64,000 nucleotides of DNA from Escherichia phage vB_EcoM_112: sequence record NC_024125.2. The stretch is one strand, 5' to 3'. The position numbers and the translations under genes are program-made. Positions 40,257 through 62,530 of the stretch are shown piece by piece. The stretch's first letter is position 1; every line of letters starts with the position of its first letter. The notes under the pieces were generated by a model. The model had not been told where the DNA came from. It saw only the letters and a list, made by a program, of their open reading frames with translations, and did not search any database.

Positions 40257-40271
40257 CTACCCTACTGTAAA

Positions 40272-40932: not shown

Positions 40933-40975
40933 ATTATTTTCCTCTTTAATCATCAGCAGTATTGCCGATAGTTGT

Positions 40976-41005
40976 ATAGTACCATGGAAGGACAAGGATG
41001 TAAAC
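40976..41005 (-). promoter_or_regulatory. Early promoter cassette (GTTTAC-18-TACTATAC) with A/T-rich UP element
   Basis: Shares ~75 bp with 58261-58336. Confidence 0.6.
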
Positions 41006-41036
41006 AGTTTTGTGAAAAAATTTTTGAAATAAAAAA

Positions 41037-41055
41037 GGGGACCTCTAGGGTCCCC
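41037..41055 (-). terminator. Hairpin terminator downstream of gene 32
   Basis: GGGGACCTCTAGGGTCCCC. Confidence 0.65.
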
Positions 41056-41077
41056 AATTAATTAGTAATATAATCTA

Positions 41078-41983
41078 TTAAAGGTCATTCAAAAGGTCAT
41101 CCAGGTCCGTGTCATCAGCACTAGATGAACTGCCAGAGCTTGAGCTCATAAAATCATCTTCAGTTTTTGTATTGAAGTCATCAACATTGAATGCATCCAA
41201 ATCATCAGCAACTTTATCAGCTTTCTTAGCAGCAGTTGCAGCGGCACCGCCCATCACAGCAGTTCCCATGACTTGACCGAATTTAGTATTCAGTTCTTCA
41301 AATGATTTGAATTTATCTTTAGAAGTCATTTCAGAAAGGTCAACCATTTGTTCGAACAGTTCTTTCTGGAAAGATTCATCGTCAATGTTTGGAATCGCAG
41401 ATTGATTCAGGAATTTAGATTCATCGTAGTTACTAAATCCAGAAACCTGTTTAACTTTCAGTACAAAGTTAGCACCTTCCCACGGACAAGTTACATCAAC
41501 TGGAGTTTCACCCATTTCAACATCAACTGCAATCATTGCATTGATTTTATCCCAGATTTTCTTACCGAAACGGTATTTAAATACTTTACCTTCATTTTCT
41601 GGAGCAGCTGGGTCTTTTACAACAAGAATGTTAGCCCAGTAAGAAGTTTTACGTTTAACAAGACCATACTCTTTATTGTCAGTGTTGTACAGATCATTTT
41701 TACTGATGTATTGACATACTGGGCAAGAATCGTAATCACCATGGGTAGATGAACATGTTTCAATATACCATTTACCATTTTTCTTGAAACCGTGATTTAC
41801 AAGAATTGCGAATGGTGCTTGTTCATCATTTTTAGACGGAAGAAAACGAATTACTGCTTGACCGTTACCCGCATTATCGAGTTTCAGTTTCCACTCGCCT
41901 TTATCTTCAGAAGAAAAACCTTTATTGCCATTCAGTTTAGCCATTTGTGCAGCAAGTTCAGCAGTAGATTTACGTTTAAACAT
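41078..41983 (-). CDS. 32: Single-stranded DNA-binding protein gp32
   Basis: 301 aa; matches remembered T4 gp32 incl. acidic Ser-rich C-terminus. Confidence 0.93.
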
Positions 41984-42042
41984 TTTATTTCCTTTTTAAT
42001 TTAATTTAATTTAATTAACAGTTGGTGCTATGACACTTTACC

Positions 42043-42675
42043 TCATAGCTGGCATAATTCGCAATACTCTGGGTCTTCGAGAGGTATCCAACCTGAGTTG
42101 AAATACTTTACCATCGATTTAGCAGTTGTATCAGTTATATTTATATTACCTTTAACTCTTCGCCATCCAGGAGTTTTACCGTACAGATTAGAGGATAATA
42201 ATAACACATAATTCTCGTAAGCAATATGAGATAATTTCCAAGACTCTATATTAGCTCGTGATGTTTTCCAAGGTCTAAAATCGTCACGGTTCATATAATT
42301 AGCCAATCTCATATGCTCTCTAACTTCCGGGTCTTTGGCTGGATGAGTTTCACCACTCACACCAAATCCACCACCAGCATATACCAGATTAAAATAGTCT
42401 GGATTATCTCTGGCATTTACTTCAAGTTGGTATTTTCGTTCTGCTTCAATAACATCCAAGTCATCATCAATTTGAATTATTTTAACGCTCGGTTTTTGAA
42501 GCATTAGCGCATTCAAAAATCTTTTTTGTTTACATGAGCTCCAGTATTCCTTTCCGGAAGAGTCATATATTATTCCGTTCTCAAATGAGCAATTTAATTT
42601 ACTACCGATATAGTAGTATGGCGGAGTCTTATTTTTGACACGGTCTTCAAATGTAAACCAATATACTATATTCAT
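42043..42675 (-). CDS. segG: GIY-YIG-type putative site-specific endonuclease between genes 32 and 59 (SegG-like)
   Basis: 210 aa; N-terminal IVYWFTF...YYYIGSKLN resembles GIY-YIG motif; position corresponds to T4 segG (formerly 32.1). Confidence 0.65.
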   Translation of the reverse strand: MNIVYWFTFEDRVKNKTPPYYYIGSKLNCSFENGIIYDSSGKEYWSSCKQKRFLNALMLQKPSVKIIQIDDDLDVIEAERKYQLEVNARDNPDYFNLVYAGGGFGVSGETHPAKDPEVREHMRLANYMNRDDFRPWKTSRANIESWKLSHIAYENYVLLLSSNLYGKTPGWRRVKGNINITDTTAKSMVKYFNSGWIPLEDPEYCELCQL

Positions 42676-42676
42676 A

Positions 42677-43330
42677 TCAATACTTACAAGATTTCACAGT
42701 TTCAATGAAAACATTTTTAGCTTTCTGTGAATCAATATTTAAAATTTTTCTATAAGCCTTTAACTTTATAGAATAATTATTCCAGACTAAATTATCAGTC
42801 TGTTCATCATGTTTATCAATTATATTTAAAAACGAATCAAGCAAGATAAACGTCTCAAACGAAATTATATTCGATTGTAGAAGTTTAAAAATATAACTTG
42901 ACTGAACCTTTGGATTATATTCAAAGATTTCTTTAAAAGCAGAAACTTCAACTTTTTTACTAAAATAATAAATGTTGCGAATATCTTCTTCAAACTTAAA
43001 TTTAATTTGCTTTAAGCGTCCGATATATTCACGATAAAACACAAGTGCATCAGCGTCAGAGATGTCACCAATCCAAGCATCTTGGTTAGCAACCAAATTA
43101 CTTATAAAAATTAAAGCAAGTTCCTTTAATTTATATTTTTCTGATAACTTCTGGAAAAAATACTTATCCCTTCGCTTTTGATAAGCGGCATCAGACACCC
43201 GCATGCACCAATTATACTTAATTACATCATACTTTCCATTCATATGCTGTTTTATCATTAAGTATAATTTATAAACTGATTTACCATCAATGTATCTTTC
43301 ACCACCAGCAGGCATGCGGAGTTTAATCAT
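42677..43330 (-). CDS. 59: gp59 helicase loader
   Basis: 217 aa (T4 gp59 length); synteny. Confidence 0.9.
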   Translation of the reverse strand: MIKLRMPAGGERYIDGKSVYKLYLMIKQHMNGKYDVIKYNWCMRVSDAAYQKRRDKYFFQKLSEKYKLKELALIFISNLVANQDAWIGDISDADALVFYREYIGRLKQIKFKFEEDIRNIYYFSKKVEVSAFKEIFEYNPKVQSSYIFKLLQSNIISFETFILLDSFLNIIDKHDEQTDNLVWNNYSIKLKAYRKILNIDSQKAKNVFIETVKSCKY

Positions 43331-43665
43331 AGCAGAAAATCTAATGTATTAGTTTTTTCACAACGAACAACAGAAGGACGTAAAAGATTTTCGTCAATAG
43401 CTTCTGACTGAATTTTTTCAATTATACCCGAAGGAATAAATTTAGCAAATTGAGTTTCAGGAATAGAATTTTCTTCCAAGAATGCTGTCGTAGCTTCAAG
43501 ATAACTCATTCCAAACTCTTCTACCATTTTTTCAATAATAAATCCATTTTCTTGACGATCAAGAAGCTTTGCTATTTCATCCTTTTCTTTCTTAATTGAA
43601 AGTTCTTTTTCTGAAAGACCGGTCTCATCGACCGGACGAATATCATTTAGAGAAAACTGTGTCAT
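43327..43665 (-). CDS. 33: gp33 late transcription co-activator
   Basis: 112 aa from MTQFSLNDIRP; track ORF has 3 extra N-terminal codons. Confidence 0.85.
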   Translation of the reverse strand: MTQFSLNDIRPVDETGLSEKELSIKKEKDEIAKLLDRQENGFIIEKMVEEFGMSYLEATTAFLEENSIPETQFAKFIPSGIIEKIQSEAIDENLLRPSVVRCEKTNTLDFLL

Positions 43666-43912
43666 AAAGTTCAACTACCTCTTCAGTTTCAGCTTCAAAC
43701 ACATCACGGTTATCTTTATGATACAAAGCTAATAGACGATTAAACATCTTACCATCAACGCCAAGTTCATCTTTGGCACGAATTCGAATATCTTTAATCA
43801 GTTCATTATAACCGGAAATTTTCAGTTTATGATCAGATGCTTCTTTAATAAATTTAGCCAAGTCTTCGCCATGGATAGCTTCATCAAATTCAACCATTTC
43901 TTTTTTAGCCAT
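43643..43912 (-). CDS. dsbA: DsbA, dsDNA-binding late transcription enhancer
   Basis: 89 aa; synteny between rnh and gene 33. Confidence 0.82.
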   Translation of the reverse strand: MAKKEMVEFDEAIHGEDLAKFIKEASDHKLKISGYNELIKDIRIRAKDELGVDGKMFNRLLALYHKDNRDVFEAETEEVVELYDTVFSK

Positions 43913-43920
43913 TATTCACC

Positions 43921-44838
43921 TCAAAATTCATTAATGCTATTAGTTAATTTAGAAAGACCCGCTTTTACAAAATATGAATAAATTTTGCCACGCGGTGGTA
44001 ATTTATATGAATTATAGTAATTCACAATGTTTGAAGCAATATTATCAGGAATATAATCAAAATCAATTAGAACTAAATTTTCTTTATAACGATTATATTC
44101 AGATTCTGTGAGAAGCACCTTAGCTTGCTCACGGTCATTAGCAATAGCTTCAACGATTGAAGTTTTCATTGAAGGAGTTCGTTCACCTTCAACTTTGGTA
44201 AACCAAAAGTCAGATCGTACTTTAACTGAAGCAACGTTATCCTTTTTATCGCCTTTAAGGATTTTAGTCATACAGTCAATTTCAGCAGAACCGCTTTTAA
44301 TTTTAACCCATTTCTTGTGCATCGGTGACCATTGCTTAACATTTGGATATTTGTGAAGTTGAGTAAAGTCACCATCCGACGAAATGATTAAAATCTTATG
44401 TCCTTCTAAAGAGAACTTTTTAACAAGAACAGCAATGTGGTCATCCGCTTCATACTTATCAATATCCATAACAATGTATGGCATATAAGCTTTCAATTCA
44501 TCTATAACTTTATGGCTGGATTCAAAATAACCTTCCCAGTCCCAAGTAGATTCTTCTCGTGCTTTTCCACGGTTTTTCTTATAATAATACGCGAAATCAC
44601 GACGCCAGTATCCAGATTTCGCATTATCAATACACAGTACAATTTTAGTGTATCCAAGAGTTTTTGCTTTTTTGACATTAAACTTAATTGAGTTCAATAT
44701 CAAATGACGAACCATTGATAAATTAATTTTTTCTTTATCTGGGAAGTTTACCAAAGCAGTTGAAAGAGCAATTTGACTAAAGTCAATTAAGCAGATTCCT
44801 TCTTTGTAATCTTCATCCAGCATCATTTCTAAATCCAT
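43921..44838 (-). CDS. rnh: RNase H (5'-3' exonuclease, FEN family)
   Basis: 305 aa from MDLEMMLDEDYKEG; early promoter GTTTAC-18-TATAAT at 44868-44897. Confidence 0.9.
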   Translation of the reverse strand: MDLEMMLDEDYKEGICLIDFSQIALSTALVNFPDKEKINLSMVRHLILNSIKFNVKKAKTLGYTKIVLCIDNAKSGYWRRDFAYYYKKNRGKAREESTWDWEGYFESSHKVIDELKAYMPYIVMDIDKYEADDHIAVLVKKFSLEGHKILIISSDGDFTQLHKYPNVKQWSPMHKKWVKIKSGSAEIDCMTKILKGDKKDNVASVKVRSDFWFTKVEGERTPSMKTSIVEAIANDREQAKVLLTESEYNRYKENLVLIDFDYIPDNIASNIVNYYNSYKLPPRGKIYSYFVKAGLSKLTNSINEF

Positions 44839-44867
44839 ATGAACCTCGTTCAATTAGTGAGATTTCT

Positions 44868-44897
44868 ATTATATACCATCCAAATCTTAAAGTAAAC
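44868..44897 (-). promoter_or_regulatory. Early promoter GTTTAC-18-TATAAT for rnh
   Basis: Consensus -35 and -10; back-to-back with the gene 34 late promoter. Confidence 0.6.
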
Positions 44898-44900
44898 AAG

Positions 44901-44908
44901 TATAAATA
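44901..44908 (+). promoter_or_regulatory. Late promoter TATAAATA for gene 34
   Basis: Exact consensus ~35 nt upstream of ATG. Confidence 0.7.
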
Positions 44909-44942
44909 CTTATTATTGAAAACACAATAGGAGCCCGGGAGA

Positions 44943-47900
44943 ATGGCCGAGATTAAAAGAAAGTTCAGAGCAGAAGATGGTCTGGACGCAGGTGGTGATA
45001 AAATAATCAACGTAGCTTTAGCTGATCGTACCGTAGGAACTGACGGTGTTAACGTTGATTACTTAATTCAAGAAAACACAGTTCAACAATATGATCCAAC
45101 TCGTGGATATTTAAAAGATTTTGTAATCATTTATGATAACCGCTTTTGGGCTGCTATAAATGATATTCCAAAACCAGCAGGAGCTTTTAATAGCGTACGA
45201 TGGAGAGCGTTACGTACCGATGCAAACTGGACAACTGTTTCATCAGGACCTTATCAATTAAAGTCAGGTGAATCAATTTCAGTTAATACTGCAGCAGGAA
45301 ATGATATCACATTTACTTTACCATCTTCTCCAATTGATGGTGATACTATCGTTCTCCAAGATATTGGAGGAAAACCTGGAGTTAACCAAGTTTTAATTGT
45401 AGCTCCAGTGCAAAGTATTGTAAACTTTAGAGGTGAACAGGTACGTTCAGTACTAATGACTCATCCAAAGTCACAGCTAGTTTTAATTTTTAGTAATCGT
45501 CTGTGGCAAATGTACGTTGCTGATTATAGCAGAGAAGCTGTAGTTGTAACACCGGCAAGTCTCTATCAGGCGCAATCTAACGATTTTATCGTGCGTAGAT
45601 TTACTTCTGCTGCACCAATTAATGTTAAACTTCCAAGATTTGCTAATCATGGCGATATTATTAATTTCGTCGATTTAGATAAACTAAATCCGCTTTATCA
45701 TACAATTGTTACTACATACGATGAAACGACTTCAATACAAGAAGTTGGAACTCATTCCATTGAAGGCCGTACAACGATTGACGGTTTCTTGATGTTTGAT
45801 GATAATGAGAAATTGTGGAGATTGTTTGACGGGGATAGTAAAGCGCGTTTACGTATTATAACAACTAATTCTAATATTCGTCCAAATGAAGAAGTTATGG
45901 TATTTGGTGCGAATAACGGAACAGCTCAGACAATTGAGCTTAAGCTTCCGACTGATATTTCTGTTGGTGATACTGTTAAAATTTCCATGAATTACATGAG
46001 AAAAGGACAAACAGTTAAAATCAAAGCTGCCGGTGAAGATAAAATTGCTTCTTCAGTTCAATTGCTGCAATTCCCAAAACGCTCAGAATATCCGCCTGAA
46101 GCTGAATGGGTTACAGTCCAAGAATTAGTTTTTAATGGTGAAACTAATTATGTTCCGGTTTTACAACTTGCTTATATAGAAGATTCTGACGGAAAATACT
46201 GGGTAGTACAGCAAAACGTTCCAACTGTAGAAAGAGTAGATTCTTTAAATGATTCTACTAGAGCAAGATTAGGCGTAATTGCTTTAGCTACACAAGCTCA
46301 AGCAAATGCTGATTTAGAAAATTCTCCACAAAAAGAATTGGCAATTACTCCAGAAACGTTAGCTAATCGTACTGCTACAGAAACTCGTAGAGGTATCGCA
46401 AGAATAGCAACTACTGCTCAAGTTAACCAGGATACTACATTCTCTTTTGCAGATGACCTTATCATTACTCCTAAAAAGCTGAATGAAAGAACAGCTACTG
46501 AAACTCGCAGAGGTGTTGCTGAAATTGCTACGCAGCAAGAAACTAATGCAGGAACCGATGATACTACAATCATCACTCCTAAAAAGCTTCAAGCTCGCCA
46601 AGGTTCTGAATCATTATCTGGTATTGTAACTTTTGTATCTACTGCAGGAGCTACTCCAGCTTCTAGTCGTGAATTAAATGGTACGAATGTTTATGATAAA
46701 AACACTAATAATTTAGTTGTTTCACCTAAAGCTTTGGATCAGTATAAAGCTACTCCAACGCAACAAGGCGCAGTAATTTTAGCAGTTGAAAGTGAAGTAA
46801 TTGCTGGACAAAGCCAAGAAGGATGGGCAAATGCGGTTGTAACGCCAGAAACGTTACATAAAAAGACATCAACTGATGCAAGAATTGGTTTAATTGAAAT
46901 TGCTACGCAAAGTGAAGTTAACACAGGAACTGACTATACTCGTGCAGTCACTCCTAAAACTTTAAATGACCGTAGAGCAACTGAAAGTTTAAGTGGTATA
47001 GCTGAAATTGCTACGCAAGTTGAATTCGACACAGGCGTCGACGATACTCGTATCTCTACACCATTAAAAATTAAAACCAGATTTAATAGTACTGATCGTA
47101 CTTCTGTTGTTGCTCTATCTGGATTAGTTGAATCAGGAACTCTCTGGGACCATTATACCCTCAATATTCTTGAAGCAAATGAGACACAACGTGGTACACT
47201 TCGTGTAGCTACACAAGTTGAAGCTGCTGCAGGAACATTAGATAATGTTTTAATAACTCCTAAAAAGCTTTTAGGTACTAAATCTACTGAAGCGCAAGAA
47301 GGTGTTATTAAAGTTGCAACTCAGTCTGAAACTGTGACTGGAACATCAGCAAATACTGCTGTATCTCCAAAAAATTTAAAATGGATTGTGCAGAGTGAAC
47401 CTACTTGGGCAGCAACTACTCTGATAAGAGGTTTTGTTAAAACTTCATCTGGTTCAATTACGTTTGTTGGTAATGATACAGTCGGTTCTACCCAAGATTT
47501 AGAACTGTACGAGAAAAATAGTTATGCAGTATCACCATATGAATTAAATCGCGTATTAGCAAATTATTTGCCGTTAAAAGCAAAAGCGGTAGATAGTAAT
47601 TTATTAGATGGTCTAGATTCACTCCAGTTCATTCGTAGGGATATTGCGCAGACAGTTAATGGATCATTAACCTTAACCCAACAAACGAATCTGAGTGCCC
47701 CTCTTGTATCATCTAGTACTGCTACGTTTGGTGGTTCAGTTTCGGCAAATAGTGTACTAACTATTTCTAATACTGGAACAGAAACTCATCTGATTTTTGA
47801 GAAAGGACCTCAAACTGGAACTAACCAAGCGCAGACGGTGACTATTAGAGTGTGGGGTAATCAATTTAGTGGGGAATCAGACACAACACGTTCTACTGTA

Positions 47901-48812
47901 TTTGAAGTTGGTGATGAAACGTCTAATCATTTTTATTCTCAGCGCAATAAAGCTGGAAATATAACATTTAATATCAACGGTACAGTAACACCTATAAATG
48001 TTAATGCTTCAGGAACATTGAATGCAAATGGTGTAGCAACATTTGGTAATTCAGTCACTGCAACTGGTGAAATTATTTCTCGAAGCGCAAATGCTTTCCG
48101 TGCTATTAACGGAAATTATGGTTTCATTGTTCGCAATGATGGATCAGTAACGAATTTTATGCTTACTGCATCGGGTGATCAGACTGGCGGATTTAATGGA
48201 TTGCGTCCTTTAGCTATCAATAATGCATCTGGTCAAGTAACGATTGGCGAAAGCTTAATCATTGCCAAAGGTGCTACTATAAATTCAGGCGGTTTGACTG
48301 TTAACTCGAGAATTCGTTCTCAGGGTACTAAAACATCTGACTTATATACCCGTGCGCCAACATCTGATACTGTAGGATTCTGGTCAATCGATATTAACGA
48401 TTCAGCCACTTATAACCAGTTCCCGGGTTATTTTAAAATGGTTGAAAAAACTAATGAAGTGACTGGACTTCCATACTTAGAACGTGGTGAAGAGGTTAAA
48501 TCTCCTGGTACACTGACTCAGTTTGGTAACACACTTGATTCGCTTTACCAAGATTGGATTACTTATCCAACAACACCAGAAGCGCGTACCACTCGTTGGA
48601 CGCGCACATGGCAGAAAACCAAAAACTCTTGGTCAAGTTTTGTTCAGGTATTTGACGGAGGTAACCCTCCTCAACCATCTGACATCGGTGCTTTACCATC
48701 TGATAATGCTATAATGGGTAATCTTACTATTCGTGATTTCTTACGAATTGGTAATGTTCGCATTGTTCCTGACCCAGTGAATAAAACGGTTAAATTTGAA
48801 TGGGTTGAATAA
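44943..48812 (+). CDS. 34: Long tail fibre proximal subunit gp34
   Basis: 1289 aa (T4 gp34 length); internal ~40-aa repeats (ITPKKL...TRRG...IATQ); late promoter TATAAATA at 44901. Confidence 0.93.
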   Translation: MAEIKRKFRAEDGLDAGGDKIINVALADRTVGTDGVNVDYLIQENTVQQYDPTRGYLKDFVIIYDNRFWAAINDIPKPAGAFNSVRWRALRTDANWTTVSSGPYQLKSGESISVNTAAGNDITFTLPSSPIDGDTIVLQDIGGKPGVNQVLIVAPVQSIVNFRGEQVRSVLMTHPKSQLVLIFSNRLWQMYVADYSREAVVVTPASLYQAQSNDFIVRRFTSAAPINVKLPRFANHGDIINFVDLDKLNPLYHTIVTTYDETTSIQEVGTHSIEGRTTIDGFLMFDDNEKLWRLFDGDSKARLRIITTNSNIRPNEEVMVFGANNGTAQTIELKLPTDISVGDTVKISMNYMRKGQTVKIKAAGEDKIASSVQLLQFPKRSEYPPEAEWVTVQELVFNGETNYVPVLQLAYIEDSDGKYWVVQQNVPTVERVDSLNDSTRARLGVIALATQAQANADLENSPQKELAITPETLANRTATETRRGIARIATTAQVNQDTTFSFADDLIITPKKLNERTATETRRGVAEIATQQETNAGTDDTTIITPKKLQARQGSESLSGIVTFVSTAGATPASSRELNGTNVYDKNTNNLVVSPKALDQYKATPTQQGAVILAVESEVIAGQSQEGWANAVVTPETLHKKTSTDARIGLIEIATQSEVNTGTDYTRAVTPKTLNDRRATESLSGIAEIATQVEFDTGVDDTRISTPLKIKTRFNSTDRTSVVALSGLVESGTLWDHYTLNILEANETQRGTLRVATQVEAAAGTLDNVLITPKKLLGTKSTEAQEGVIKVATQSETVTGTSANTAVSPKNLKWIVQSEPTWAATTLIRGFVKTSSGSITFVGNDTVGSTQDLELYEKNSYAVSPYELNRVLANYLPLKAKAVDSNLLDGLDSLQFIRRDIAQTVNGSLTLTQQTNLSAPLVSSSTATFGGSVSANSVLTISNTGTETHLIFEKGPQTGTNQAQTVTIRVWGNQFSGESDTTRSTVFEVGDETSNHFYSQRNKAGNITFNINGTVTPINVNASGTLNANGVATFGNSVTATGEIISRSANAFRAINGNYGFIVRNDGSVTNFMLTASGDQTGGFNGLRPLAINNASGQVTIGESLIIAKGATINSGGLTVNSRIRSQGTKTSDLYTRAPTSDTVGFWSIDINDSATYNQFPGYFKMVEKTNEVTGLPYLERGEEVKSPGTLTQFGNTLDSLYQDWITYPTTPEARTTRWTRTWQKTKNSWSSFVQVFDGGNPPQPSDIGALPSDNAIMGNLTIRDFLRIGNVRIVPDPVNKTVKFEWVE

Positions 48813-48820
48813 GAGGTATT

Positions 48821-49939: not shown

Positions 49940-49944
49940 ATTGA

Positions 49945-49968
49945 GGGAGCCTTCGGGTTCCCTTTTTC
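49945..49968 (+). terminator. Terminator after gene 35
   Basis: GGGAGCCTTCGGGTTCCC + TTTTTCTTT. Confidence 0.7.
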
Positions 49969-49970
49969 TT

Positions 49971-49978
49971 TATAAATA
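49971..49978 (+). promoter_or_regulatory. Late promoter TATAAATA for gene 36
   Basis: Exact consensus ~24 nt upstream of ATG. Confidence 0.7.
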
Positions 49979-50001
49979 CTATTAAAATAAAGGGGCATAC
50001 A

Positions 50002-50658: not shown

Positions 50659-50666
50659 GAGGACTT

Positions 50667-54819
<4,153 letters not shown>

Positions 54820-54849
54820 TTTGAATAAATATCCTTAAAAGGAGGGTCT

Positions 54850-55506
54850 ATGTCAGCACCTAGAATATCATTTTCGCCCTCTGATATTCTATTTGGTGTT
54901 CTAGATCGCTTGTTCAAAGATAACGCTACCGGGAAAGTTCTTGCTTCCCGGGTAGCTGTCGTAATTCTTTTGTTTATGATGGCGATTGTTTGGTATAGGG
55001 GAGATAGTTTCTTTGAGTACTATAAGCAATCAAAGTATGAAACATACAGTGAAATTATTGAAAAGGAAAGAACTGCACGCTTTGAATCTGTCGCCCTGGA
55101 ACAACTCCAGATAGTTCATATATCATCTGAGGCAGACTTTAGTGCGGTGTATTCTTTCCGCCCTAAAAACTTAAACTATTTTGTTGATATTATAGCATAT
55201 GAAGGAAAATTACCTTCAACAATAAGCGAAAAATCACTTGGAGGATATCCTGTTGATAAAACTATGGATGAATATACAGTTCATTTAAATGGACGTCATT
55301 ATTATTCCAACTCAAAATTTGCTTTTTTACCAACTAAAAAGCCTACTCCCGAAATAAACTACATGTACAGTTGTCCATATTTTAATTTGGATAATATCTA
55401 TGCTGGAACGATAACCATGTACTGGTATAGAAATGATCATATAAGTAATGACCGCCTTGAATCAATATGTGCTCAGGCGGCCAGAATATTAGGAAGGGCT
55501 AAATAA
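54850..55506 (+). CDS. t: Holin T
   Basis: 218 aa (T4 T length); N-terminal TM segment VAVVILLFMMAIVWY; position after gene 38. Confidence 0.88.
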   Translation: MSAPRISFSPSDILFGVLDRLFKDNATGKVLASRVAVVILLFMMAIVWYRGDSFFEYYKQSKYETYSEIIEKERTARFESVALEQLQIVHISSEADFSAVYSFRPKNLNYFVDIIAYEGKLPSTISEKSLGGYPVDKTMDEYTVHLNGRHYYSNSKFAFLPTKKPTPEINYMYSCPYFNLDNIYAGTITMYWYRNDHISNDRLESICAQAARILGRAK

Positions 55507-55779
55507 TTATTTGTTTGTATACATCTCTAGATATCGATATACACCCTCAAAACCCTCGTTGAATTCGTCGATGAGGGTTTTCTTATCTTCTTGGGTTAAT
55601 TCAGAAACAATTTTACGAAATGAATTCTGATTTAACTTTCTACCTTCATGCGTTACTCCAATCTCATTCAGAAATGCAATAAAATTAGCACGATTCTCAA
55701 CAATATCTTCTCTGGAAAATTTAATCAAAATAGACGCAACAGTAATAATTTCACGAACTGTATCAATGTTTTTATTCAT
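55507..55779 (-). CDS. asiA: AsiA anti-sigma-70 factor
   Basis: 90 aa; matches remembered AsiA (MNKNIDTVREIITVASILIKFSRE...); early promoter at 55811-55840. Confidence 0.9.
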   Translation of the reverse strand: MNKNIDTVREIITVASILIKFSREDIVENRANFIAFLNEIGVTHEGRKLNQNSFRKIVSELTQEDKKTLIDEFNEGFEGVYRYLEMYTNK

Positions 55780-55810
55780 TAACTATACCACTCAATTAGT
55801 TGACTTTGTT

Positions 55811-55840
55811 ATAATATCATCAGACGCTTGATTTGTAAAC
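55811..55840 (-). promoter_or_regulatory. Early promoter GTTTAC-18-TATTAT for asiA
   Basis: ~30 nt upstream of asiA ATG. Confidence 0.6.
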
Positions 55841-55940
55841 TGGTCTGTGTTATTTTCTTCAAAAATTTTTTCTGCGAATTCCTTGAACGACTCACGTTCC
55901 TGAGCTACATTGTGCTCGATTACCTTTTCAAGATTATGAC

Positions 55941-56219
55941 TCATTCGAAATAATCTTCAATTTCGTAATCATGGACATAAATCATTATAGTTTTTAATAC
56001 ATCATCAATACTTTTTCCTGGAGCTGGAATTACGTAAAAATATCCTGCTTTTGAGAGGTCTTTATAAGTTCCAACCAAGAAATCATTATTCTCAAGATGT
56101 AGTTCTTCAACTAATTCATTGACAATTGAATGGTATAAATTTGGTAGAAACTTATATAGCTTTTCTAGAATATCAATTTTGATTGTGTATTGAACCACAG
56201 ATTGAGAATCAATAATCAT
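55941..56219 (-). CDS. arn: Arn-like acidic protein (anti-restriction nuclease position)
   Basis: 92 aa, acidic; synteny adjacent to asiA. Confidence 0.7.
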   Translation of the reverse strand: MIIDSQSVVQYTIKIDILEKLYKFLPNLYHSIVNELVEELHLENNDFLVGTYKDLSKAGYFYVIPAPGKSIDDVLKTIMIYVHDYEIEDYFE

Positions 56220-56302
56220 AGACCTTCCCCTTATGTTTCTGTTTGCGATTAGATTCTTTAAACGCTTTCTTCTTATCTTTATGGACAGAAGCTTTATTAA
56301 AA

Positions 56303-56521
56303 TTATGTTTTGCGACTAAATTGTTCATAATGCTGAATTACCTCTCTCAAACATTTGCATGTGAATGAAAACTTTTTAGCTACACCACATTCAAATATAT
56401 GTTCTCTTAAATCGCGTGTATCGGTATATCCCATCTCAACAATAAAATGCCGTATTAGATTTTTATCTTTATCATTGAGAGAATTAAAATAATCAGATTT
56501 TGAATTAATTTCCCTGGCCAA
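56303..56521 (-). CDS. Hypothetical 72-aa protein (arn.x cluster)
   Basis: ORF; contains CxxC...C pattern. Confidence 0.5.
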   Translation of the reverse strand: MAREINSKSDYFNSLNDKDKNLIRHFIVEMGYTDTRDLREHIFECGVAKKFSFTCKCLREVIQHYEQFSRKT

Positions 56522-56801
56522 ATTGAATCACCTTCAGTTGACGTTTTAATTCTTTTATCATTTCTTCGTTCATCGCAATATAAAGATCGCGTAAAGCAGG
56601 TTTTAGCATTCCATTTACTGGAGAACTAAATGGACATACATAATCTTTTCCTACAAGCTTTTTGGTGAATTCCATATCACAGAACTTAAATCCCGGTTCA
56701 TTGGTATAAATTCCCCAATTAGTTGACATCATTTTATTGGCATATTCTAGTGCCTGGATTTGATTCATAATTCCATCAATTTGAAACTTTTTAATATTCA
56801 T
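56505..56801 (-). CDS. Hypothetical 98-aa protein (arn.x cluster)
   Basis: ORF in operon. Confidence 0.55.
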   Translation of the reverse strand: MNIKKFQIDGIMNQIQALEYANKMMSTNWGIYTNEPGFKFCDMEFTKKLVGKDYVCPFSSPVNGMLKPALRDLYIAMNEEMIKELKRQLKVIQFGQGN

Positions 56802-57262
56802 TAGTAAAGGTCCTCAGAGTAAAGTTCTTTTTCATTACCACCACGTTCAATACGTACTTGTCCAGCGTAAGTTGCAATAATCATTGCTTCTTCACGTGTC
56901 CAATAATTACTATATTGGTCAATAAACCCTTGGTCATCATTACAAACTTGCTGAGTAACTAATTGAGGTTTAACTACATCTAAAACTTCTGCCATATCTT
57001 TAGAATAATGACGAGCACCTGGAATAACAAGAGTTCGTCCATCTTTTAATTTAAAACGGTTGGCTGCACAGACAATTCGTCGTTGATACTTTTGGTTTTC
57101 ATCCCAGTACGCAGTCTGCCAACAGATTTCAGGAACTTCTTTCAGAATATCTTCTTCTGTGCATTTATAACCATGCGCTTTAAATTTTTCAACAAGACTT
57201 TCTGGAGTCTCACGAGATAAAGGAACATTCAGCATTTTTAAACGATTAATAAATGGGTTCAT
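56801..57262 (-). CDS. Hypothetical 153-aa protein (arn.x cluster)
   Basis: ORF in operon. Confidence 0.55.
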
Positions 57263-57588
57263 TTAAACCATCCTTTAATACGCTGCCACAAAGTTTTCTG
57301 TTGAGCTTTGTTAACACCAATTGAACGAATAACTGGTTGAGATTCCTGGAATTCTTTATAATCAGCAAGGTAAATTTCGTAAGCTGCATCCGTAAATGAA
57401 CTTATCGCTGCCATAAAATTATTGCGAATACCTACTGGAGCATCTTTACTTTCACGAATAATCATGTATTTACCAGTCTTAATCTTTACGATAGTTCCAA
57501 GATAAGCTCCATGGTACCAAATATCCCAACCCTCTTGAGTAGGTTCTGCACAACGACGAAGTTCATTGACAATTTCTAACTTGTTCAT
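57259..57588 (-). CDS. Hypothetical 109-aa protein (motA.1 position)
   Basis: ORF immediately downstream of motA. Confidence 0.55.
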
Positions 57589-57598
57589 TATTTATTCC

Positions 57599-58234
57599 TC
57601 ACAGTTCAGATGCTACAGTGATTACAGCTTCAATGTTTTCTGCCGAGCGTTTAATGTCAAGATACACATTACCGTTTTTAGCGATTTTACATGACATTCC
57701 GATGTCAGTAAATTTCTGAATATGATGTTCCATCATTTTGTATCCAAAAATTCGCATATTTCCATTATTGTTAATTTCAAAATTACGAATTCCGTGAGTG
57801 CGTTTTTCTAAAATAGCGAGATAGTTACTGCGATAAGTTTCAACCTTTTTAAGAACAAATCCATTTTCATCTAAAAGTTTTAACATGAAGTCTTTATCTT
57901 CTTCCATATCGGAAGTAATCTCGCGAGCTTTACGAGTTGCTCGTTTTTTCAGCAGTTCCGGAGCATTTTCTTGTGCGTATAAAGTTGCTGCATTTGAAAT
58001 AATATCCTGAGCTTCACCAGTAATGATTAATCCATCACCAGATTTCTCCACCAGGCCTTTTTTAATCAATACCCCAATATTACTATTAACTACTGCGTTA
58101 CCTAAATCTGGATGCACCTCACGAACTTCTGCAGCTGTAATGAAATCTTTCTTAGCAATAGTAATTAAAATCGCAGCAGTTTTTTCATTCAGAACATCGT
58201 TAGAAGCTTTGATGATGTAAGTTACTTTAGACAT
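57599..58234 (-). CDS. motA: MotA middle transcription activator
   Basis: 211 aa; matches remembered T4 MotA; early promoter cassette at 58276-58305. Confidence 0.92.
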   Translation of the reverse strand: MSKVTYIIKASNDVLNEKTAAILITIAKKDFITAAEVREVHPDLGNAVVNSNIGVLIKKGLVEKSGDGLIITGEAQDIISNAATLYAQENAPELLKKRATRKAREITSDMEEDKDFMLKLLDENGFVLKKVETYRSNYLAILEKRTHGIRNFEINNNGNMRIFGYKMMEHHIQKFTDIGMSCKIAKNGNVYLDIKRSAENIEAVITVASEL

Positions 58235-58275
58235 TTTCTAATCTCCGTAATTCTGTATCAGTAGTTGATAGTTGT

Positions 58276-58305
58276 ATAGTACCACAGTATGCTTTGGTTG
58301 TAAAC
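58276..58305 (-). promoter_or_regulatory. Early promoter cassette upstream of motA
   Basis: GTTTAC-18-TACTATAC plus UP element TTTTGTGAAAAAATTTTTGAAATAAAAAA; repeated at 40976-41036. Confidence 0.65.
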
Positions 58306-58336
58306 CGTTTTGTGAAAAAATTTTTGAAATAAAAAA

Positions 58337-58356
58337 GGGAGAGCCTCGGCTCTCCC
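58337..58356 (-). terminator. Hairpin terminator downstream of gene 52
   Basis: GGGAGAGCCTCGGCTCTCCC. Confidence 0.7.
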
Positions 58357-58507
58357 TAAAATTACTGTATGACTGTGATAACTGTCATGATAACACGCTG
58401 AATACCAAAAGCAAGAAGACCTCCTGCTACGGCTGGAACAACACCTAAACCCGCCAGTAAAATGGCACCAGATACTAACGCAGCGCTTGTAATACCTACG
58501 AATGGAC

Positions 58508-59836
58508 TCATTTGATTTCCTCTAAATCTTTGGTGTATTCTGTAACTACATCAGTAGTTTTCCAATATTCGTTTTCTTCTTTCTTAGCTTTAGCTTCTTC
58601 GGCAAGTTTCTTTGCTTCATCGGAAGTCATATGAAAAATATTCATTCCAACTAGTTTATCAACATAAGAAGAATACATATCGATTTTCGAAAGTTCTTCG
58701 GTCAGTTCTTTGCGAGTTTTACCCTGTACAACGATTTCACCTGAAATTACTTTCTTAATGAAATGTGCCTTGGCAAAGGCTAAACGAAATGCTGATTCAG
58801 TTTCTTTGATTTTGTTATCAATTCGTTTTTGGACATAAGTTTTACGAACTTCAACGAAGTCTTTGATTAAATCAACTACGTTATCGTAAACTTGCAGCTT
58901 TCCTTTCTCATTAATAACCGTAATATTCTGAGAACGACGCTCAATCAGTCCGAAGTCTTTCATAATTTTTGCATGGCGTTCTTCTTCATTATCGCTCAAA
59001 GAATATTCTTTGCGGAATTTAACTTTGAATCCAAAACCATGCTCACCACAAGCATCATCCCATGTAATGAAGCCTTTATCTTCAAGTGGGTCTAAGATTT
59101 TACTCACATAAGTTTCACGATCATACTTATACGGAATCTCAGTGATATGCATTTGAGTTCGTGAAGTAAACTTATATGTTCCACGAATTTCATATTGACC
59201 ATCAATCTCAACGACTTCACCACGAAATTCTGGGAATTCTACCTTCGGTTTAGTTACTTTCTTTCCTTGAAGAGCTTGCAGTACAGCTTTCTTAACAGAA
59301 GAAACACTATGAGGAAGAATGTAAGTTGCATAACCAGTTGCAATACCGGAAACGCCATTAAGAAGAACAGTAGGAATAATAGGCAAATAGAAAGCAGGCG
59401 GAATGTGTTCTTTATCTTGATGTACCGGAGCATATTCAGTATCTTTATATACGTTATAGAAATTTTTACTTACACGAGCAAAAATATAACGACTTGCTGC
59501 TGCTTTTTGGACGGTACGAGAACCAAAGTTTCCTTGACCATCTAACAGAGGAAAGTTATTATTCCAAGTGTTAGCCATCAAAGCACCTGCGTCTTGCGCA
59601 GAGTTTTCACCATGATGATATCCAAGGTCCGCTACACCACCTGCAATAGAAGCGAGTTTGTGAAACTTATCTTTATTCCCTCGTGCCAAATCAAGAGCTC
59701 GAGCAATAACAAATCGTTGAACTGGCTTAAATCCGTCAATCATATTTGGGATAGCACGATTTTCAACCGTGTACATAGCATAAGCCAATGCTTCATTATC
59801 AATGATACTTTTTAAATCGCGATTATTCAGTTGCAT
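58508..59836 (-). CDS. 52: DNA topoisomerase II medium subunit gp52
   Basis: 442 aa; GyrA/ParC-like N-terminal region (...AIPNMIDGFKPVQRFV...). Confidence 0.92.
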   Translation of the reverse strand: MQLNNRDLKSIIDNEALAYAMYTVENRAIPNMIDGFKPVQRFVIARALDLARGNKDKFHKLASIAGGVADLGYHHGENSAQDAGALMANTWNNNFPLLDGQGNFGSRTVQKAAASRYIFARVSKNFYNVYKDTEYAPVHQDKEHIPPAFYLPIIPTVLLNGVSGIATGYATYILPHSVSSVKKAVLQALQGKKVTKPKVEFPEFRGEVVEIDGQYEIRGTYKFTSRTQMHITEIPYKYDRETYVSKILDPLEDKGFITWDDACGEHGFGFKVKFRKEYSLSDNEEERHAKIMKDFGLIERRSQNITVINEKGKLQVYDNVVDLIKDFVEVRKTYVQKRIDNKIKETESAFRLAFAKAHFIKKVISGEIVVQGKTRKELTEELSKIDMYSSYVDKLVGMNIFHMTSDEAKKLAEEAKAKKEENEYWKTTDVVTEYTKDLEEIK

Positions 59837-59840
59837 AAAT

Positions 59841-59981
59841 TTACCATACTAGTGAATGTAGTGCCATAATAACATCAGAAATGAAAAGCACGACTTGAAT
59901 TAATCCGAACATTACTCCATAATATAGTGCTACTAATAAAGTAGCAAGGGCTAATGAATAGCCCAAGATTTTCTTAATCAT
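59841..59981 (-). CDS. Small hydrophobic protein (~46 aa; T4 52.1 position)
   Basis: Hand-translated MIKKILGYSLALATLLVALYYGVMFGLIQVVLFISDVIMALHSLVW; coordinates approximate. Confidence 0.45.
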   Translation of the reverse strand: MIKKILGYSLALATLLVALYYGVMFGLIQVVLFISDVIMALHSLVW

Positions 59982-60132
59982 TAGTAGATAACAACACAAA
60001 TGTTAAATATGCACACATACCCTGGGCTAAAGCTTGTGAAAACACACTGCTAGCATCGATACAGATAGTTAAAACACATGCTACTATCCAACAAATAAAT
60101 GAAATAACTCCTAATAATTTTGCGATATTCAT
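59974..60132 (-). CDS. ac: Small membrane protein (~51 aa; Ac-like)
   Basis: Hand-translated MNIAKLLGVISFICWIVACVLTICIDASSVFSQALAQGMCAYLTFVLLSTND; size and position fit T4 ac; coordinates approximate. Confidence 0.5.
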   Translation of the reverse strand: MNIAKLLGVISFICWIVACVLTICIDASSVFSQALAQGMCAYLTFVLLSTND

Positions 60133-60139
60133 ATTTTCC

Positions 60140-60220
60140 TCACTGGCGTCCGAAGACGCCTTTAGTTTTAAGATTATTACGATAGAACTGCATCACGTGT
60201 TCGTTGTGGAAATTACTCAT
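60140..60220 (-). CDS. stp: Stp peptide (26 aa)
   Basis: Hand-translated [26 protein letters not shown], matching the T4 Stp peptide as I recall it; ATG overlaps ndd stop (TAATG). Confidence 0.7.
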
Positions 60221-60678
60221 TAATATGCCTGCAAAACGAATTTAAAATTATCAGCCAACATACGGTTCATTTCTTCAAGTGTTTGATACTCAGAATGATG
60301 ATTACGAGTAAACGCTAAAGCTAACTGTCCTTTTCCAAATCCCGTCGTCAGAGGTTTCATCTTAGAAGCAGGCAGATAAAATACTGTGTATGGAACATTG
60401 TTATTTGCAATAGTACGTGCAAGCTGAGACCGACGTTGACGAATATGACTTAGAACTGCACTGAATCCTTGCTTAGAACGCTGATTACCTACATAAAATC
60501 GCGCAGACACACATGGATTACTAAATGGACGACCATCTAATTTACTTACTAAAAAGTAAAATCCAGGTTTAGACAAAATGTCTTTGTGCGGAGTTCCCAA
60601 AAACCACTCACCACCCTTGATTGTACCAATAACAGTTGCGCCTGCATTGTTCAAATCAGTAACAGTCATGTATTTCAT
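60220..60678 (-). CDS. ndd: Ndd nucleoid disruption protein
   Basis: ~152 aa from [18 protein letters not shown] (SD AGAGGAAA upstream); track ORF has a 17-codon extension lacking an RBS. Confidence 0.85.
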
Positions 60679-60738
60679 ATTAATTTCCTCTAAATTATTT
60701 TCTACTCCAAGGCCGCATGAATACACACGGCCATTAAA

Positions 60739-60954
60739 TTAATCGTCGCAGTCGACGCTCAATTCCCAAAACTCTTCTACGGTATAAGTTTCAATATCAT
60801 TTTCAATACAGAAACGTTCATTACTGTTGTTTGCTAAAGTAGCGTTAACTGTCATTTTTTCGCTAGTGCTCTTAAGAGGTGAAATACGAATTAACTGATC
60901 ACCGTTATCTAAACAAAAAATTTCACCAACTTTTACATCTTTAAAACTTTTCAT
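60739..60954 (-). CDS. Hypothetical 71-aa protein (ndd.1 position)
   Basis: ORF. Confidence 0.5.
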   Translation of the reverse strand: MKSFKDVKVGEIFCLDNGDQLIRISPLKSTSEKMTVNATLANNSNERFCIENDIETYTVEEFWELSVDCDD

Positions 60955-61069
60955 AATTCACCTCAAGGAGTATAAAATCCAAACGCAGTTGTTGACCATC
61001 CCATCCAATACGGGAAATTTGCGCCAATGTAAAACATAAGAATATAAAACCAACCGCTCAGCAAATTCA

Positions 61070-61288
61070 TCATTTTACACCATTCCAAATTGTTTCAACC
61101 ACGGATTTTAAACCATTTTGATGAATATCCATTCCGACTACCGCCATCAAATAGATTCCAACTACAACTGAACCTAAGGCAAAAATCAGCATGAAAATGA
61201 ATAAAGCCGGAAAAATATTATCGAAAAACCATTCAATAAATGTAAAAGCACTGCGTTTACGCTTCATATTTTCCTCACATAAATCCAA
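61070..61288 (-). CDS. Small membrane protein (72 aa)
   Basis: Two predicted TM helices (IFPALFIFMLIFALGSVVVGIYLMAVVGM). Confidence 0.5.
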   Translation of the reverse strand: MDLCEENMKRKRSAFTFIEWFFDNIFPALFIFMLIFALGSVVVGIYLMAVVGMDIHQNGLKSVVETIWNGVK

Positions 61289-61388
61289 AGTAAACGTTTA
61301 ATACATCAATCATTAAAACGATTGGGAATATACTCAAAACTATTAGTATTATAACTACATTCCATATAGCTTTAATAATCTTTTTCAT
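61275..61388 (-). CDS. Small membrane protein (37 aa; start MKKIIKAIW)
   Basis: SD GGAGGAAC 6 nt upstream of internal ATG; the longer track ORF begins upstream of the early promoter at 61417-61446. Confidence 0.5.
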   Translation of the reverse strand: MKKIIKAIWNVVIILIVLSIFPIVLMIDVLNVYFGFM

Positions 61389-61416
61389 TTTCTGTTCCTC
61401 CGTAGTTGATAGGGTA

Positions 61417-61446
61417 ATAGTACCACGGAAGAACAGTCTTGTAAAC
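61417..61446 (-). promoter_or_regulatory. Early promoter cassette (GTTTAC...TACTAT, leader CTATCAACTACGGAGGAAC)
   Basis: Repeat family member. Confidence 0.55.
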
Positions 61447-61630
61447 AACTTTTTAAAAATATTCGTAATAAATGTGAATACCAACTACTACCGCTGAAAC
61501 CTGCGCAACCCACCACGCACAAGCAATAAGTACAGAATTCAAAATTTTCATAATAACCTCATCACAAAAGTAAATGTTAAACAAATTACTGGAATACTAA
61601 TTAACCAAACAAAACACCACCATAGTGAAC

Positions 61631-61894
61631 TCATAGCTCAATCTCAATGATTTCAAGATTATTTTCTTTAATAGCTTTCTTTAAATCATCGTAAATAAGA
61701 ACTTCCCAAGAATTGTTTAAATCACCATTCAACAAACGCTCTTGCTGCAATTTATCAGTAAGATATGGTTGATCTGATTCATATTTAGACAATCCCAATG
61801 AAATAAATGATGTTGCATCGTCAATTTCAGAATATTGTACATGAACAAATTCACCTGTGATTTTATGTTTAACATAAAAGAATTTAAATTTCAT
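61631..61894 (-). CDS. Hypothetical 87-aa protein
   Basis: SD GGAGGAAC upstream; early promoter cassette at 61922-61951. Confidence 0.6.
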   Translation of the reverse strand: MKFKFFYVKHKITGEFVHVQYSEIDDATSFISLGLSKYESDQPYLTDKLQQERLLNGDLNNSWEVLIYDDLKKAIKENNLEIIEIEL

Positions 61895-61921
61895 TTTTGT
61901 TCCTCCGTAGTTGATAGTTGT

Positions 61922-61951
61922 ATAGTACCACGGTCCTTGTGGTATGTAAAC
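61922..61951 (-). promoter_or_regulatory. Early promoter cassette (GTTTAC-18-TACTATAC, leader CAACTATCAACTACGGAGGAAC)
   Basis: Repeat family member; drives ORF 61631-61894. Confidence 0.6.
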
Positions 61952-61972
61952 CGTTTTGTGAAAAAATTTTTT

Positions 61973-62530
61973 TTAAATGGAAAGATACCATCCGTTGTAG
62001 TTGCTTTTTCTTACAACCTTACGAAGGTCTTCTCTATCACCAATGAACTTCGGAGTGTACTGGATGACACCTGGATGAATTTCTTTAGTGTTGAATATAA
62101 TTATACAGTCAGCGACTTGATGATTCAGAATGGGCCCTAGATTTATTCCAGAACCGTATGGATACTCTCCGCTGCATCCGGTTGTTACCGAAATCCATCG
62201 TGAGTCAGTTTGATGTGTTTTGACTTCTACACGAAGCCCACAGTATTTTGGATGCGCCAATACATCCCATGCATATGTATATGGGTCATTAACATCCTCT
62301 TGGCCTTTGTTAACATACCCGCTTAGCCAATCTGCTACAAAAAATTCTGCGTACACAGCGATACGGCATCTTTCGATAACTTCTGCCTTATCCTGATTCG
62401 GATTTTGTTTTAAAGAGTATCTTGCTGTATCAGCAATTTTGACCTTCATTTCACTAGTCAAGTCACTGTTCGATAGGGTAAATGTCGGAATCTGAAATAG
62501 TCTCTGTAACCCCGGATTCGTTTTCTGCAT
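61973..62530 (-). CDS. denB: DenB endonuclease IV
   Basis: 185 aa (T4 DenB length); synteny next to rIIB. Confidence 0.78.
   Translation of the reverse strand: MQKTNPGLQRLFQIPTFTLSNSDLTSEMKVKIADTARYSLKQNPNQDKAEVIERCRIAVYAEFFVADWLSGYVNKGQEDVNDPYTYAWDVLAHPKYCGLRVEVKTHQTDSRWISVTTGCSGEYPYGSGINLGPILNHQVADCIIIFNTKEIHPGVIQYTPKFIGDREDLRKVVRKSNYNGWYLSI

Follow-up and report, generated by a model that had tools for sequence, protein, structure and literature searches.

The early promoters (Pe) of bacteriophage T4 are described as UP/-35/TGn/-10 promoters with additional consensus regions (Hinton 2010, PMC2988021), with GTTTAC at -36 to -31 and an A-rich UP region (Nolan et al. 2006, PMC1524935). The consensus given in the reviews consulted here extends only to -7, and the segment from -2 to +9, CTATCAACTAC, is little discussed. 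Promoter-early stem-loop (PeSL) cassettes are defined in Comeau et al. 2014 (PMC4122927), together with the T4/PST promoter consensus TTTACW-N17-TAYWAT and an adjacency to insertions and deletions (indels); PeSL crossovers have been mapped between the -10 element and the Shine-Dalgarno sequence (SD) or ATG (Arbiol et al. 2010, PMC2839356). Here we compare these systems with five minus-strand sites of the form GTTTAC-18 nt-TACTAT in a 64,000-nt stretch of Escherichia phage vB_EcoM_112 (NC_024125.2; this whole stretch is the window below). All five stand 5' of early genes in the same orientation (motA, frd.3, frd.1, and homologues of ndd.4 and of PST ORF268, the last an 87-amino-acid [aa] open reading frame [ORF]), and we name them after these genes. 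Coordinates are collected in Table 1.

We conclude that the five sites are very probably T4-type Pe promoters, some of them fused to terminators as PeSL cassettes, and that CTATCAACTAC is the start-site consensus of such promoters. Read as sigma-70 promoters, all five have TTTACA as the -35 element (GTTTAC at -36 to -31), a 17-bp spacer, TG ahead of the -10 element, and TACTAT, and so agree with GTTTAC plus 18 nt plus TAnnAT. In a promoter scan the extended -10 element read (G/A)TGG at four sites and GTGA at the frd.1 promoter, with TG at five of five. The pattern GTTTAC-N18-TACTATAC matched eight places in the window at up to 2 mismatches (0.44 expected). A/T-rich sequence, with A at about -40 to -44, precedes every promoter (AAAAATTTTTTCACAAAAC at three sites, less specific A/T-rich sequence at the other two) and matches the positional consensus of T4 promoters, which show position-specific A/T preferences at -40 to -54. 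Of the 15 positions specified by the Escherichia coli UP-element consensus (Estrem et al. 1998), the block agrees in register with 12. For T4, the early-promoter consensus is attributed to Liebig and Ruger 1989, among others.

An original prediction, made from the window sequence, had described four of the sites as a second family of repeated early-promoter cassettes sharing GTTTAC, an 18-nt spacer and TACTATAC. The hexamer TACTAT was borne out at all four; TACTATAC is exact at only three of them (frd.3, motA and the 87-aa ORF), and the ndd.4 promoter, like the frd.1 promoter, reads TACTATTA. The loci do align well past the hexamers, and the proposed early promoters, UP element and cassette running into a terminator agree with known T4 Pe promoters and PeSLs. 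As for a separate family, the frd.3, motA and 87-aa ORF promoters form a tight subclass sharing TGGTACTATACAACT and TTTTCACAAAAC; the ndd.4 promoter is a hybrid between two subclasses, with TACTATTACCCT in its -10-proximal part, and the shared leader CTATCAACTAC is general to T4. That leader had been assigned to three of the four copies and to a promoter at 40225-40256, and it is indeed exact at these four minus-strand places, with frd.3 carrying CTATCGGCAAT instead. The span 40225-40256 covers only the -10 hexamer and leader of the frd.1 promoter.

The T4 genome supports this assignment. GTTTAC-N18-TAnnAT occurs 33 times on its early-transcribed strand and 0 times on the other, and the five window sites correspond one-to-one to T4 sites (Table 1). 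Published Pe coordinates equal the G of GTTTAC minus 36 (Pe26.4, 27,044; Pe148.6, 150,727; Pe40.4, 41,225; PMC6024815), and the same holds for "Pe133295," a misc_feature that is the sole mention of a promoter in T4 records NC_000866 and AF158101, which hold zero promoter features in the regions examined. This offset places the start at the A of ATCAACTAC and hence CTATCAACTAC at -2 to +9, and the same geometry gives the predicted starts in Table 1. Judging from coordinate offsets, Pe144.6 is presumably the frd.3 promoter; the supplement of PMC6024815 gives no position for Pe144.6. In Yersinia phage fPS-65 (NC_055724) the orthologous motA site is annotated as "terminator" and "predicted early promoter," and a Mosigvirus record cites the Miller et al. 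2003 consensus as GTTTAC(N14)gtggTAttaT. Every defining sequence element of Pe promoters is present in register, on the strand of the early genes, at orthologous sites and with the published start geometry; nothing essential differs, and within the class the window copies fall at the end nearest to the consensus. A further perfect match to GTTTAC-N18-TACAAT, at 45396-45425 on the minus strand, is antisense within the late tail-fibre gene 34 and is kept in T4 (151,291).

Allowing 1 mismatch, CTATCAACTAC has eight matches in the window, where 0.96 is expected. Across all 33 T4 sites the majority base at each position from -2 to +9 spells CTATCAACTAC (frequencies, 0.33 to 0.73), and the exact copies in T4 are all (7 of 7) at the same offset from a -10 hexamer, with none elsewhere. 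The distance of the motif to the -10 hexamer is invariant, whereas that to GGAG varies (+10 to +24). Because CTATCAACTAC equals the T4 consensus and keeps a fixed offset from the -10 hexamer, what looked like a leader is very probably the start-site and initially transcribed part of the general early-promoter consensus and not a separate RNA signal.

The following mechanism very probably accounts for the sites. Unmodified host sigma-70 RNA polymerase would read Pe promoters right after DNA injection, using an A/T-rich UP element (alpha C-terminal domains), the -35 element G-TTTACA, a 17-bp spacer ending in TGn, and the -10 element TACTAT. Transcription would start 7 nt past the -10 hexamer; it is to this hexamer that CTATCAACTAC is anchored, and not to the ribosome-binding site. 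The T-run of the upstream terminator, in the frd.3 and motA copies, forms the upstream flank of the A/T-rich block holding the UP element. Phage recombination would swap segments between paralogous promoters, the UP/-35 and -10/start-site blocks providing the homology; the copies are near-identical and mosaic, very probably because recombination exchanges promoter segments, and the same exchanges would insert, delete and replace adjoining small genes. The GGAG-type SDs downstream would be independent targets of RegB/S1, set by GGAG and the A-rich sequence 3' of it.

The frd.3 and motA copies fit the published PeSL type, each joining a terminator stem-loop to an A/T-rich region and an early promoter that is followed by an SD and ATG. 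The original prediction of a shared A/T-rich block running into the terminator was confirmed at these two loci: the 30-mer TTTTTTATTTCAAAAATTTTTTCACAAAAC is identical at 41007-41036 and 58307-58336 and occurs at no other place in the window (0 expected), and both copies adjoin terminator hairpins. A shorter block, TTTTCACAAAACNGTTTAC, is additionally present at 61946-61964. In the loci alignment the conserved composite extends from the A/T-rich region across promoter and SD to the start codon, and a genome holds several copies of it; the 88-nt motA cassette was found at 3,886 places in 567 phage records, with 7 to 9 per Tequatrovirus genome among the records listed. Indels and replacements between close relatives fall at exactly these sites. 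The likeness has two limits: the frd.1, ndd.4 and 87-aa ORF promoters (3 of 5) lack an upstream terminator stem-loop, and Arbiol et al. (PMC2839356) consider the elements of T-even phages analogous rather than homologous to the PeSLs of RB49.

By its sequence the window comes from a Tequatrovirus, with the promoter sites lying within classic early regions. For the part from 57.8 to 62.2 kb, the closest relative found was Escherichia phage UPWr_E2, with 97.5% identity, and 918 T4-like records match. Gene identities were obtained by comparison with the T4 record and PHROG searches. The regB gene lies at 62.3 to 62.7 kb in T4, a part of the genome beyond this window. The GTTTAC of the frd.1 promoter overlaps the stop codon of frd.2.

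Table 1. Genes, predicted promoters, leaders, terminators and hairpins at the five early-promoter loci
Feature	Coordinates	Strand	Details
rIIB		minus	T4 comparison/PHROG
denB	61973-62530	minus	T4 comparison/PHROG
87-aa ORF	61631-61894	minus	homologue of PST ORF268
ndd.4 homologue	61275-61388	minus	
gp52 gene		minus	T4 comparison/PHROG
motA.1	58362-58511	minus	
motA	57599-58234	minus	
gene 32	41078-41983	minus	
frd.3	40705-40932	minus	
frd.1	39971-40213	minus	
UP-element region, 87-aa ORF promoter	61952-61975	minus	AAAAAAAATTTTTTCACAAAACG; overlaps denB 3' end
87-aa ORF early promoter	61922-61951	minus	just 3' of denB; predicted start 61915; T4 orthologue 167,086
87-aa ORF motif and leader	61895-61917	minus	CTATCAACTAC (61907-61917) and GGAGGAACAAAA; T4 homology breaks directly 3' of CTATCAACTAC
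87-aa ORF SD			GGAGGAACAAA; 9/11 to GGAGRAYARAA; GGA at +10
ndd.4-homologue early promoter	61417-61446	minus	predicted start 61410; T4 orthologue 166,807; CTATCAACTAC at 61402-61412
ndd.4 read-through hairpin	61392-61436	minus	15 bp; promoter spacer pairs with CUACGGAGGAACAG (leader and SD); start in loop
ndd.4 SD			GGAGGAACAGA; 8/11 to GGAGRAYARAA; GGA at +10
Intrinsic terminator after motA.1	58336-58357	minus	9 pairs; orthologous place annotated "terminator" in NC_055724
UP-element region, motA promoter	58306-58335	minus	30-mer identity with frd.3 copy
motA early promoter	58276-58305	minus	predicted start 58269; T4 orthologue 163,673
motA start-site motif and leader	58235-58271	minus	CTATCAACTAC at 58261-58271
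motA SD (RegB-type site)	58236-58246	minus	GGAGATTAGAA; 10/11 to GGAGRAYARAA; GGA at +24
Intrinsic terminator after gene 32	41037-41055	minus	GGGGACCCTAGAGGTCCCC, then T-run; 7 pairs, 6 G-C; orthologous to T4 gene 32 downstream terminator
UP-element region, frd.3 promoter	41006-41036	minus	terminator T-run and AAAAATTTTTTCACAAAAC
frd.3 early promoter	40976-41005	minus	GTTTAC(A), 17-bp spacer, TGG, TACTAT; predicted start 40969; T4 orthologue 146,875
frd.3 leader	40933-40969	minus	AUCGGCAAUACUGCUGAU...; SD GAGGAAAA, without GGAG; 7-bp hairpin at 5' end
frd.3 SD			GGAA only, not a GGAG site; GGA at +28
frd.1 early promoter	40243-40272	minus	GTTTAC (40267-40272), 18 nt, TGA, TACTAT; predicted start 40236; T4 orthologue 146,143
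frd.1 read-through hairpin	40235-40265	minus	14 bp around the -10 hexamer; TAGGGTA/TACCCTA
frd.1 start-site motif and leader	40214-40238	minus	CTATCAACTAC at -2 to +9 (40228-40238), then SD
frd.1 SD	40213-40223	minus	GGAGAATAAAA; final base is the A of ATG; 11/11 to GGAGRAYARAA; GGA at +14

Spacer swaps, leader swaps and gene indels were all found at these sites among the window phage, T4, PST and UPWr_E2. The frd.3 promoter has orthologous flanks around an 18-nt spacer that shares all but one position with that of the T4 e.8 promoter (17 of 18), and the T4 frd.3 spacer is that of the T4 nrdC.10 promoter (18 of 18). Just 3' of denB, T4 homology ends directly after CTATCAACTAC (61904), and the window continues with an nrdC.8-type leader and the 87-aa ORF; the T4 counterpart of this ORF is an 8-codon remnant, MKIAEIEL and a stop (L001:7002-7028), and PST has ORF269 and ORF268 behind the same promoter (L066:1113-1588). 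The window ORF is only 53% identical to PST ORF268, with flanks about 95% identical. One conserved denB-proximal promoter therefore has three different gene contents behind it in the window phage, T4 and PST, and the ndd.4/.5 versus ORF268/269 exchange is at the same locus as Fig. 6A of PMC4122927. At frd.1, T4 differs by a different leader and an extra small ORF between two GGAGAA(T/A)A..ATG repeats of ribosome-binding sequence; the window (40213-40236) lacks this unannotated ORF of about 22 codons (MFAPYIMAAVMLVCLYLLIKAC and a stop; L004:46016-46080), which in T4 separates frd.1 from its promoter. In UPWr_E2 (L006:1935-2410), one of the four originally predicted sites has a clean cassette insertion: a 75-aa ORF and an early promoter belonging to it lie between motA and the motA.1 terminator/promoter, bracketed by a direct repeat of promoter and leader, CTATCAAATAAATGAACTGAAAC. 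We considered whether this extra 228-nt ORF is a transposed frd.3 and rejected the idea: the proteins are unrelated, and the insert is a separate ORF-plus-promoter cassette. These comparisons indicate that the near-identity of the promoter copies is the product of recombination among paralogous promoters.

Such exchanges raise an alternative hypothesis, that the start-site motif is in itself without function and hitch-hikes in a PeSL-type segment homogenized by recombination. The promoters are mosaic with breakpoints directly beside the motif, the full family-A block TTTTCACAAAAC...TGGTACTATACAACT is limited to phages more than 88% identical to T4, and other strong T4 early promoters do without the motif. 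We nevertheless consider hitch-hiking unlikely, given how the 9-mer behaves in more distant phages. A scan of IMG/VR for GTTTAC-N18-TAnnAT-N6-ATCAACTAC returned 56 loci with more than 20 different discriminators, spacers and downstream genes, about 28 of them in phages with flanks only 66 to 78% identical to T4; this tally, like the set of IMG/VR promoters not selected for the motif, includes L023 and L064, which resemble a Ruminococcus phage (these and L037, which had no match in the phage collection, are not T4-like). Other genera thus have the 9-mer next to discriminators, spacers and leaders that are unrelated, and long homology to carry it is lacking there; the Mosigvirus imm promoter, for instance, also carries ATCAACTAC. 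All orthologues of the denV promoter retain ATCAACTAC at +1 to +9, in five lineages and amid changing surroundings. Even in IMG/VR promoters of the same loci not selected for the motif, the consensus cTATCAA (A at +1) is still visible, and A (+1, +4 and +5) and T (+2) are more frequent than base composition predicts.

Several points weigh against the reading of the five sites as Pe promoters with a start-site consensus. Promoter activity and start sites in vB_EcoM_112 are carried over from T4, the PeSL-defining upstream stem-loop is present at only 2 of 5 promoters, and in distant genera the consensus among promoters not selected for the motif is weak (T at -1 in 86%, A at +1 in 57%, C at +3 in 29%). 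Moreover, sequence comparison by itself does not separate functional conservation from repeated gene conversion. The reason for keeping the initial transcribed sequence is likewise something that we infer; the segment from +1 to +9 may be under selection across Tevenvirinae genera, for example, for promoter escape.

The conserved segment might instead act as the 5' end of the RNA, with the unstructured, G-free AUCAACUAC setting the fate of the mRNA through S1 or ribosome standby, as a translational enhancer, or as an entry site for 5'-end-dependent decay by RNase E/G. By the starts deduced from T4, the motif lies exactly at the 5' end, which begins with A; the sequence is CA-rich and G-free and is predicted to be unpaired in all four leaders. 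We regard this as improbable. Anchoring to the 5' end is computationally indistinguishable from anchoring to the promoter, and the promoter-initiated transcripts showed neither structure nor covariation: conserved RNA structure was rejected for the four CTATCAACTAC leaders, which fold no better than shuffled sequences (z, -0.7 to +1.2), and an Rfam search of the leaders gave zero matches at gathering thresholds and only chance-level ones at E values up to 1. The frd.3 copy has a 5' hairpin instead of the motif. In this transcript (40952-40969, minus strand) a predicted 7-bp 5'-terminal hairpin, AUCGGCA/UGCUGAU, replaces the unstructured AUCAACUAC, with one pair that is a mismatch in T4; it could act as a 5' stabilizer.

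The original prediction had raised the possibility of a regulatory RNA element, with the CTATCAACTAC leader forming part of a recognition element for the RegB endoribonuclease and S1 together with the adjacent GGAG. A RegB/S1 site consists of GGAG and 7 A-rich nt 3' of it (GGAGRAYARAA; T4 optimum, GGAGAAUAAAA) (Durand et al. 2006, PMC1702504) and is cleaved between the second G and the A of GGAG (PMC1702504; Uzan and Miller 2010, PMC3014915). It is plausible that the GGAG-type SDs of the window are RegB sites, especially those of frd.1 and motA, which fit the consensus and are predicted to be single-stranded; that of motA is already known, motA RNA being a good RegB substrate in which flanking 5' and 3' sequence accelerates cleavage non-specifically (PMC1702504). 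GGAG is predicted to be unpaired in promoter-initiated RNA of four of the five leaders (motA, frd.1, the 87-aa ORF and ndd.4), the exception being frd.3, whose GGAA is poorly cut. A part for CTATCAACTAC in these sites is not supported, and we judge it very improbable. The motif sits 5' of GGAG, where deletion analysis found no specific information to be needed, and cleavage persists in motA RNA that begins at GGAG (PMC1702504). When cleaved T4 RNAs were aligned over a 48-nt window, only GGAG and the 7 nt 3' of it rose above background, and SELEX gave no other motif. The distance from motif to GGA is +10, +10, +14 and +24, against an invariant distance to the -10 hexamer, and many promoters have the motif before non-GGAG SDs. 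Finally, that CTATCAACTAC (-2 to +9) is an operator through which a phage protein shuts off early promoters minutes after infection is pure speculation and scarcely credible: the mechanism of early shut-off is incompletely understood (PMC3014915) and the motif overlaps the start site, but only about one in four early promoters of T4 has it in full although shut-off hits the class as a whole (PMC3014915), and neither a candidate binding protein nor a palindromic half-site was found.

The suggestion that the conserved segment is "not just a promoter" held in part at the ndd.4 promoter, where, in RNA that reads through, leader and SD are predicted to pair with the spacer of this same promoter; its RegB part was not supported. 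The start site lies within the loop, so the stem would form only in RNA from upstream promoters. The predicted hairpin (-22.7 kcal/mol; z = -4.98; 0 of 200 shuffles) buries the GGAGG of ndd.4, and its GGAG is accordingly paired in the folded read-through RNA; the spacer/leader duplex ranked first (-23.3 kcal/mol). Among relatives, covariation was limited to one-sided C/T changes retaining G-U pairs and one edge mismatch, with zero double compensatory changes; double changes were seen only in the hairpin of the denV promoter (below). The frd.1 promoter has a similar predicted hairpin (-18.2 kcal/mol; z = -2.41), that of frd.3 is weak, and the motA and 87-aa ORF promoters have none (z about 0).

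In T4, the spacers of 12 of 33 promoters form an exact inverted repeat, 6 nt or longer, with the discriminator, leader or SD downstream of them, versus 7.5% of mismatched pairs (permutation p < 0.0005), and the RNA duplex energy of spacer with own downstream sequence averaged -10.0 versus -7.2 kcal/mol for mismatched pairs (p < 0.0002); the same energy test on the window promoters gave p = 0.016. In a non-redundant set from other phages, from which L023 and L064 were excluded, 13 of 58 promoters had a repeat (5.3 expected). At the denV promoter (beyond the window; T4 L003:15340-15413; L022, L024, L046 and L062) a two-tier read-through hairpin is predicted in five lineages, with changes in the spacer compensated in the leader/SD arm (e.g., TCTCCTGTAG/CTACAGGAGA versus TTCCTCCAAG/CTTGGAGGAA) and energies of -17 to -20 kcal/mol for read-through RNA versus -0.6 to -2.2 for promoter-initiated RNA. 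Further predicted hairpin sites were seen in the window at 26802-26877 and 23739-23814 (minus strand) and in T4 at 8218, 7215, 53943, 62797, 73939, 133331 and 166807; the stem buries the SD of ndd.4, of the gene behind window promoter 23814 (T4 130,310), and of regB, dexA and nrdC.8. In the T4 motB promoter (L002:6560-6650), with ATATAC in place of GTTTAC at -35, the -10 hexamer stands between the two arms of a perfect 13-nt inverted repeat, one being the spacer, ATCAGTAGTTGAT, and the other the promoter's leader, ATCAACTACTGAT. We rejected the idea that inverted repeats at the -10 element stand in for a missing upstream terminator, the trend in that direction being not significant (11 of 12 versus 16 of 21; Fisher p = 0.38).

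Hairpin switches are known at the late promoters of e, soc, 49 and I-TevI (PMC3014915, section 29). As there, the start at the ndd.4 promoter and at many T4 early promoters lies inside the predicted hairpin, and only read-through RNA would form the stem that masks SD and leader, the internal-promoter RNA lacking the 5' arm. The known cases differ in being late promoters, with translation delayed to late infection, whereas ndd.4 has an early promoter, and the loop holds the -10 hexamer at ndd.4 and the denV orthologues. In the review consulted, that of 2010 on post-transcriptional control in T4 (PMC3014915), only the late cases are listed and an early-promoter version was not found. We tentatively propose, while leaning somewhat against it, that many early promoters, those of ndd.4 and frd.1 included, are hairpin switches that mask the downstream ribosome-binding site and RegB GGAG in read-through RNA and leave promoter-initiated RNA open, and that, separately, ATCAACTAC at +1 to +9 is perhaps selected across genera.

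The promoter, UP-element and cassette organization described here is already known from T4 Pe promoters and PeSLs, and the picture of T4 early transcription is unchanged; less familiar are the start-site consensus and the read-through hairpins. For annotation, the five sites can be labeled as early promoters with predicted starts, two of them with terminators, and the small ORFs that follow can be treated as early genes. In terms of phage evolution, the spacer swap at frd.3, and the swaps of leaders and genes at frd.1 and downstream of denB, add new and clean cases in which promoters mediate gene conversion and the exchange of cassettes; PeSL shuffling has previously been illustrated with such loci. 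Specialists may find interest in CTATCAACTAC as a promoter-anchored consensus across genera and in a statistically supported subset of early promoters within SD-masking hairpins specific to read-through RNA. If the latter are real switches, they would be an early-promoter counterpart of those at e, soc, 49 and I-TevI and would give the ATCAACTAC...GGAGG leader an RNA-level role at some sites.

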